From: a virus
Lineage: Duplodnaviria; Heunggongvirae; Uroviricota; Caudoviricetes
Length of the DNA: 4,971 bases
Direction: 5' to 3' (one strand)
Virus record (IMG/VR): IMGVR_UViG_2698536476_000014
In this document: positions 1 through 235 of the stretch, piece after piece
Layout of the letters: every line of letters begins with the position of its first letter
Position numbering within the stretch: position 1 is the stretch's first letter
Notes under the pieces: generated by a model
Databases searched by the model: none
What the model was told of the DNA's origin: nothing
Seen by the model: only the letters and a program-made list of their open reading frames with translations
Translations under genes and position numbers: made by a program

Positions 1-55
1 TCTGGCAGCCTGAGTTCACAGATAAAATACTCTCCAGGAAACCCGGGGCGGTTCA
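1..55 (+). mobile_element. Terminal end of an IS3-family insertion sequence (IS629/IS1203-like right end); includes the last three codons and TGA stop (11-13) of the transposase
   Basis: Bases 1-55 are the exact reverse complement of 4813-4867. The sequence ends in ...GGAAACCCGGGGCGGTTCA, which I recognise from memory as the IS629 right terminus. Not database-verified. Confidence 0.75.
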
Positions 56-235
56 CTCAGGCGTTTCGTGAGTACCTTTAGCCTGAATCTGCGCTCTGCT
101 TAGAGTAGGGCGGTGTAATACTTCTGAACTTATTGCTTCTTCGCGGGCCAGTACGCCGTTAGCTAATGCCTTTGCCTTTAAACGCTCACGACGACGAGAA
201 CGTGAATTGCCTTTGAACTGAGTTCTGCGTGTCAT
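53..235 (-). CDS. N: N-like transcription antiterminator, truncated after codon 60 by the IS insertion; the TGA stop is supplied by the IS terminal TCA at 53-55
   Basis: Arg-rich N-terminal motif (TRRTQFKGNSRSRRRERLKAKA) typical of lambdoid N proteins. Strong SD (GGAGG) 6 nt upstream of the ATG. Lies about 165 nt downstream of a boxB hairpin, as in lambda. Full-length N proteins are about 100-130 aa. Confidence 0.6.
   Translation of the reverse strand: MTRRTQFKGNSRSRRRERLKAKALANGVLAREEAISSEVLHRPTLSRAQIQAKGTHETPE

Follow-up and report, generated by a model that had tools for sequence, protein, structure and literature searches.

The closest known relatives of the gene described here are the N proteins of lambdoid phages. 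N of phage H-19B is a protein of 127 amino acids with an Arg-rich motif (ARM) at 12-RSRRRER-18, and loss-of-function mutants R3H, S11F, R15C/P and R18P have been described (Muteeb et al. 2012, PMC3526286). Wild-type H-19B N gives 34.2% read-through at nutR-tR1 and 31.8% at a distal terminator (PMC3526286 Table 1). The ARM point mutants give 3.7–7.9% at nutR-tR1, and R18P, the only one with a value at the distal terminator, gives 0.18% there (PMC3526286). Deletion of residues 96–127 leaves 17.8% read-through at nutR-tR1 and 1.4% at the distal terminator, and deletion of residues 78–127 leaves 8.2% at nutR-tR1, the one site for which a figure is given for that allele (PMC3526286).

IS629, an insertion sequence (IS) of the IS3 family, resides mainly in prophages and is a main source of Stx-phage diversity (PMC3271280; PMC4587872). 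In the defective, IS-disrupted Sp prophages of O157 Sakai, lytic functions have been lost through IS insertion, and immunity and cargo genes have been kept (PMC2669165). The prophage fragment analyzed here is probably of the same kind; it differs in the gene that was struck, which is nu1 in Sp4 of Sakai and N in the present case. In the literature, we found no description of an IS at this site in N and nothing specific on the assembly accession.

Results

A 933W-type immunity region between two IS ends

The window, that is, the whole stretch of DNA under analysis (4,971 nucleotides), is an entire 4971-bp short-read draft contig (LOGE01000162.1, assembly GCA_001606545.1), both ends of which lie in a multicopy IS. 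From 56 to 4812, it is identical at 4757 of 4757 bases to the immunity region of prophage 933W in E. coli O157:H7 EDL933. The homology breaks exactly at both IS termini, on the left side at 55/56. The segment containing N and nutL (56–476) is 100% identical to the corresponding part of phage 933W (AF125520), and the same holds for many Stx1a- and Stx2a-converting phages. The gene order N-nutL-stk operon-cI-cro-cII-O is that of 933W, and the features of the window are collected in Table 1.

Table 1. Features of the 4,971-nt window, with positions counted from its first base
Feature	Position	Strand	Basis or remark
Left IS copy: right end (OrfB-proximal inverted repeat, IRR), IS629/IS1203-type, IS3 family	1..55	plus	ends ...GGTTCA at 55
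Truncated N ORF	53..235	minus	ATG at 235, 60 codons, TGA at 55..53
TGA stop of truncated N	53..55	minus	bases 1-3 of IS terminal repeat
GAG, N codon 60, IS-adjacent copy of 3-bp target site	56..58	minus	GAG on both sides in L003
N codons 1-60 (933W/H-19B type antiterminator)	56..235	minus	identity to residues 1-60 of 127-aa protein
Arg-rich motif RSRRRER, residues 12-18, boxB-binding part of N	182..202	minus	translation; H-19B N ARM numbering
N leader with nutL	236..476	minus	boxB, long stem, AGGAGG at 241-246
nutL boxB hairpin GCGCUGACAAAGCGC	401-415	minus	sequence, in N leader
pL-like promoter TTGATA-17-CATTAT, predicted	485..513	minus	consensus scan only
stk kinase, intact	891-1937		
cI repressor, intact, HTH and S24 peptidase	2862..3569	minus	100% identical to 933W
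cro, intact	3648-3875		
nutR boxB hairpin UCGCUGACAAAGCGA, downstream of cro	3914..3928	plus	sequence
cII, intact	4014-4310		
Replication gene O, 157 of 312 codons native	4343..4812	plus	base 4813 is both last native base and first IS base
ori iterons, six TCCCYYAAA...GGGA repeats	4692..4814	plus	sixth cut by IS
Right IS copy, same type, inverted, IRR facing phage DNA	4813..4971	minus	OrfB C-terminus ...GNDDLAA

Between cI and pL (724–2801, minus strand) lie a DUF3024 gene, a 153-aa ORF without a Pfam match, the stk gene and a 54-aa ORF, all of them intact and identical to 933W. The stk product is a eukaryote-like Ser/Thr kinase (Pkinase, E = 2e-46), and the 54-aa ORF ends at a terminator-like hairpin at 704–725. 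An Rfam scan of the window returned only chance snoRNA matches, which fell in the iterons.

Truncation of N at codon 60

In 933W and many Stx phages, the gene at this locus is annotated as antitermination protein N. The uninterrupted N of 933W comprises 127 residues, the first 60 of which are identical to the ORF in the window, and its codons from 60 onward read CGCATAGAAGAC. The 127-aa protein is present on more than 1000 contigs and matches the Pfam family N_peptide (PF25694) from end to end (57.5 bits over residues 2–127; cut-off 27.9); together with its annotation as N in the Stx phages, this shows that the homologs are not about 60 aa long. By contrast, the 60-aa fragment obtained 21 bits with the same model, over residues 2–27 (E = 4.8e-4). 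Since the fragment falls below the gathering score and intact N lies above it, the window carries a truncated allele of a family member and not a complete member. A PDB sequence search with intact N found no relative.

The initial annotation, made from the letters of the window, had proposed that an IS truncates N after codon 60 and donates its stop codon, leaving the Arg-rich motif and removing the C-terminal part. All of this was borne out. Comparison with full-length homologs gave a protein of 127 aa and placed the homology break next to codon 60; the TGA that ends the ORF consists of bases 1–3 of the IS terminal repeat; the ARM lies within N(1–60); and residues 61–127 are missing from the ORF in the window.

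Identity of the IS element

Window positions 1–55 are the reverse complement of the terminus at 4813–4867, with one difference, and contain the last OrfB codons of the left copy with their stop codon (positions 2–13; three codons in the window). The terminus at 4813 begins TGAACCGCCCCGGGTTTCC, and the sequence from 4813 reads TGAACCGCCCCGGGTTTCCTGGAGAG. Complete IS3-family elements of 1310 bp, found in E. coli HM670 (L002) and in a contig of another strain (L003), have an OrfB-proximal end that matches both termini. The terminal repeat TGAACCGCCCCGGG is present at both termini in the window and at both ends of the full elements in L002 and L003, all with TG...CA ends. Because both ends of the IS begin with this repeat, translation stops immediately after any in-frame insertion, whichever way the element is oriented.

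Over 159 bases, the right copy is 99.4% identical to the IS3-family copy in HM670, and it is 95–96% identical to copies annotated as IS1203. Related full copies are 1310 bp long; the copy in L003 contains ORFs with HTH_Tnp_1 and rve domains, and those in L002 and L014 are annotated with a programmed frameshift. What had been taken from the sequence for an IS-like end is thus a true mobile-element terminus; it matches full copies of 1310 bp that encode OrfA (HTH_Tnp_1) and OrfB (rve) and are flanked by a target duplication of 3 bp. With its terminal repeat and, in the related full copies, a length of 1310 bp, a 3-bp target duplication and OrfA and OrfB joined by a programmed −1 frameshift, the element resembles the IS629/IS1203/IS3411 group of the IS3 family; the window itself holds 55 bases of the left copy, with three OrfB codons, and 159 bases of the right copy, with the last ~36 OrfB codons. 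At IS position 28, the left copy has A and the right copy has G, and the two are therefore distinct copies.

A complete insertion at the same site

L003, a contig of 1.09 Mb, carries a complete 1310-bp IS at the same position of N in the same orientation. The junctions read ...ACGCCTGAG, then the element (TGAACC...GGTTCA), then GAGCGCATAGAAGAC..., with GAG duplicated on both sides (...CCTGAG, IS, GAGCGCATAGAA...), and codons 61–127 of N are intact beyond the IS. Very probably, then, a 1310-bp element of the IS629/IS1203 type entered N of a 933W-type prophage at the codon-60 GAG in the window strain, and what remains is a grounded immunity remnant.

A short-read draft contig that is complete in the window and ends in a multicopy IS might be suspected of being chimeric, with an artefactual end on a repeat. 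This is extremely improbable. More than 100 independent public contigs, drawn from NCBI, ENA and Logan assemblies, show the N'-IS junction, and one of them is the 1.09-Mb contig with the entire IS and its target duplication; this argues against both an assembly artefact and a chance ORF.

The junction could also be the edge of an IS-associated deletion or inversion, in which case the pL-side genes, together with the 3' part of N, would be absent or relocated. At each side, the contig is bordered by one and the same IS end (IRR), the two being inverted relative to each other, and this arrangement is as compatible with an inversion between copies as it is with two insertions. The draft contig L008, which has the same N'-IS junction, is likewise bounded by IRR at both ends (1–29 and 7133–7161), its second IS lying beyond the dam/ninB region. 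In L017, moreover, an IS near codon 33 of N runs directly into chromosomal genes, as after an adjacent deletion. However, L003 has a clean insertion at the exact site, with the GAG duplication and the 3' part of N beyond it, and the difference at position 28 means that neither IS copy in the window is a fresh replicative copy of the other. We consider a deletion or inversion unlikely as the origin of the junction, and its consequence for N would be the same as that of an insertion. On comparison with these contigs, the 3' part of N in the window strain may lie 1.3 kb away, as in L003, may have been moved, or may have been lost, as in L017.

Other insertions in N were found at two further positions. 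L017 (6001–7410; UGAK01000003.1) and L018 have an IS629-type element in the same N near codon 33, giving a product (P0042) with the tail EPPRVSWRVFYL. In L017, chromosomal genes adjoin the far end of the IS, which means that the entire pL arm was lost by deletion. In the protein P0037, N is fused near residue 40 to EPPRESWRLNSLRKR, which is a reading of the other end (IRL) of the same IS type; this insertion has the opposite orientation and marks a third position. One further match (H10), at first taken for an IS near N, proved to be an IS in gam.

Separately, in contig L016 (ENA ERZ1759872 contig_113, 1678–1682), an otherwise intact N has a single additional G, precisely where the IS is inserted in the other contigs. 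It reads CCTGAGGCGCATAG instead of CCTGAGCGCATAG, and the frameshifted product has 65 aa (P0002). The extra G may have been left behind by excision, or it may be a homopolymer error of long reads.

Retained and lost parts of N

The length, the ARM numbering and the mutated residues (R3, S11, R15 and R18) of the H-19B N studied previously (PMC3526286) all fit N of the window type. N of the window belongs with 933W and H-19B N in the lambda N family: its 60 residues are those of 933W N, it has the same ARM, it stands downstream of pL and nutL, and the boxB hairpins of nutL and nutR have the P22-like loop GACAA. It differs in being without residues 61–127, which include the C-terminal RNA-polymerase-binding region. 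For the NusA-binding region of H-19B-type N, no residue limits were found in published text.

Described C-terminal deletions of H-19B N and lambda N keep the ARM, as the window allele does, and lose processive antitermination (PMC3526286). The shortest published H-19B N construct, residues 1–77, is longer than the natural allele of the window, residues 1–60. An antitermination defect of the fragment, which had been called probable from the sequence, is well supported by these deletions, because removal of residues 78–127 already nearly abolishes the activity of H-19B N. By the same comparison, N(1–60) should be at least as defective as the 78–127 deletion. Binding of boxB RNA by N(1–60) is plausible from its sequence.

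The intact ARM and boxB sites raise the question of a useful residual activity, for example local protection from Rho at the nut-proximal terminator through nut/rut overlap, or interference with N of other phages that share the boxB. Such an activity is very unlikely. The 8.2% read-through of the 78–127 deletion is close to the 3.7–7.9% of ARM mutants (PMC3526286), and N(1–60) is shorter still. Furthermore, pL is the only promoter from which the fragment would be made, and the intact cI represses this promoter; the fragment would therefore be absent when a heteroimmune phage superinfects.

nut sites and the N leader

The boxB core 11-mer occurs twice in the window, compared with 0.07 occurrences expected, and both copies are at nutL and nutR positions. 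As in 933W, N is placed first on the predicted pL transcript, after nutL, and a second nut site follows cro. The N leader folds with −90.4 kcal/mol (z = −3.9). A long stem is predicted on the minus strand between 250 and 389 (about 250–267 with 370–389), in which GUGAACUUUGGGGUGUGGUG pairs with CACCUACCACACCACCAAAGUUCAUC. Some 100 nt of the leader are enclosed by this stem, whose end lies immediately ahead of the Shine-Dalgarno sequence. The stem recalls the RNase III site of the lambda N leader, as well as the 'alternative NUT RNA structures' that reportedly figure in the title of work on H-19B by Neely and Friedman from 2000.

Distribution of the 60-aa allele

About 105 public contigs encode exactly this 60-aa N product, all of them found by exact-protein look-up. 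In GenBank, it has been named 'phage early gene regulator N', for example in E. coli O145:H28. Queried in both orientations, the N'-IS junction was found in none of 5,426 complete RefSeq E. coli genomes, where the best match covered 58% of the junction query, and it was absent from GTDB species representatives, IMG/VR, JGI metagenome contigs and INPHARED phages. Another 415 contigs encoding 'partial' N(1–59) proteins were considered as more IS junctions and set aside; residue 60 is polymorphic (E, D or K), which makes branching between N alleles the better explanation of where these contigs end.

In the set of contigs that was retrieved, junctions with IS sequence are found in four immunity backgrounds, namely the 933W type, that of L003, that of L004, and one represented by L008 and L011. 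The 933W-type carriers are the window, L006, L007, L009, L010 and L012, and O is intact in all except the window. At the codon-60 site, the IS of L003 differs from that of L004 at 6 of 183 positions and from that of L007 at 10 of 231. The 28A variant seen in the left copy of the window is shared with L007, L010 and L012. In all, three IS sequence variants are found at codon-60 junctions, and every junction with IS sequence has the same orientation.

The N-nutL module around these junctions (56–476) has at most four differences across five immunity backgrounds, four of which have a verified IS junction. Those four differ from one another at no more than three positions; the fifth, L005, with four differences, is without a verified IS junction. 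Likeness between prophages of unlike immunity begins at 476, just downstream of the −10 element of the pL-like promoter, indicating that the exchanged module is the pL transcript from about its start through N.

This near identity in all backgrounds, and the mosaic nature of lambdoid phages, would suit one ancient insertion that was spread by homologous recombination of the N-nutL module, the IS being later homogenised to resident copies. The shared orientation of the junctions points in the same direction. So does the target sequence, since it contains no IR-like sequence beyond chance and no mechanism of site preference was found: when we considered IS911-style targeting, in which the insertion target is like the IS terminal repeat, the best match was 8 of 14, a value attained by half of random sites, and the idea was dropped. 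On the other side stand the sequence differences among IS copies at the site, the occurrence of the junction in four immunity types, and the further insertions in this N, at about codon 33 and, oppositely oriented, at about codon 40. In addition, draft contigs run 183–231 bases into the IS unbranched, as expected if the copy in N is the same as the resident copies. A single ancient insertion is possible, although we are inclined to doubt it.

The insertions of this IS type near codons 33 and 40 show that the same N has been struck independently. Knock-out of N by this IS type looks recurrent, and there was probably more than one independent hit at codon 60. We propose tentatively, regarding the matter as close to balanced, that the codon-60 GAG is a preferred IS629-type target hit independently in several lineages, and that N is a recurrent target for grounding in prophages whose immunity regions are kept.

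A second lesion in O and the origin

On the right side of the window, the IS interrupts O and the replication origin. The truncated O frame continues into the element for 12 IS-encoded codons (EPPRVSWRVFYL) and a stop codon at 4814–4852. This O/ori lesion is a second lesion, independent of that in N.

Discussion

We propose the following course of events. The IS would have transposed into N at the codon-60 GAG, and because the terminal repeat starts with TGA, translation of N would stop at once to give N(1–60). When pL is derepressed, the fragment may still bind nutL and nutR RNA, as the ARM and boxB are intact, but it would not be able to turn RNA polymerase termination-resistant. As a result, the delayed-early genes on the pL side (cIII, kil, gam/bet/exo and xis/int) would be left unexpressed, as would read-through toward Q. 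With O and an ori iteron cut, the prophage would also be unable to replicate. The stk operon, cI, cro, cII and both nut sites are untouched, and 933W-type immunity should still be conferred. Judged from its sequence, the prophage is most likely a grounded remnant, with no replication and no processive transcripts from pL or pR. In principle, the N defect alone could be complemented in trans if the cell had a further prophage with this N, and the N module of the window type is common to many Stx1 and Stx2 phages.

A 933W-like prophage, the type carrying Stx2a in O157:H7, should be non-inducible in this strain, because Q and the late and toxin genes are reached only with N, and because O/ori is broken as well. 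Identity of an immunity region to that of 933W does not imply a functional phage, a point of relevance to typing and risk assessment. The event is an ordinary disabling of a prophage, with a new allele and no new mechanism. About 105 contigs over several backgrounds, together with the other IS hits in N, provide a modest, usable example of IS-driven prophage domestication. A preferred site at codon 60, or selection for inactivation of N, would be of modest interest if true.

Annotation of N is uneven in public genomes. In complete E. coli genomes, RefSeq (PGAP) mostly omits the intact 127-aa N (for example, L001 2297–2680 and L015 4009–4392) and records no more than the final 23 codons, under the pseudogene label 'regulator, missing N-terminus'. 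N is annotated on only one of the 15 listed matches among complete RefSeq E. coli genomes.

Replication genes of other prophages have been struck as well. In E. coli HM670 (NZ_CP082772.1; L002 3230–4539), a 1310-bp IS lies in O of another lambdoid prophage, 157 bp downstream of the position struck in the window, and GAC is duplicated at its target; elements of this type may strike O repeatedly. In L003 (4141–6999), the replication-initiator gene of the prophage with the insertion in N is split by an IS21-family element (IstA/IstB). This initiator is an intact protein of 299 aa in L008, and the pieces in L003 match its residues 1–157 and 153–299.
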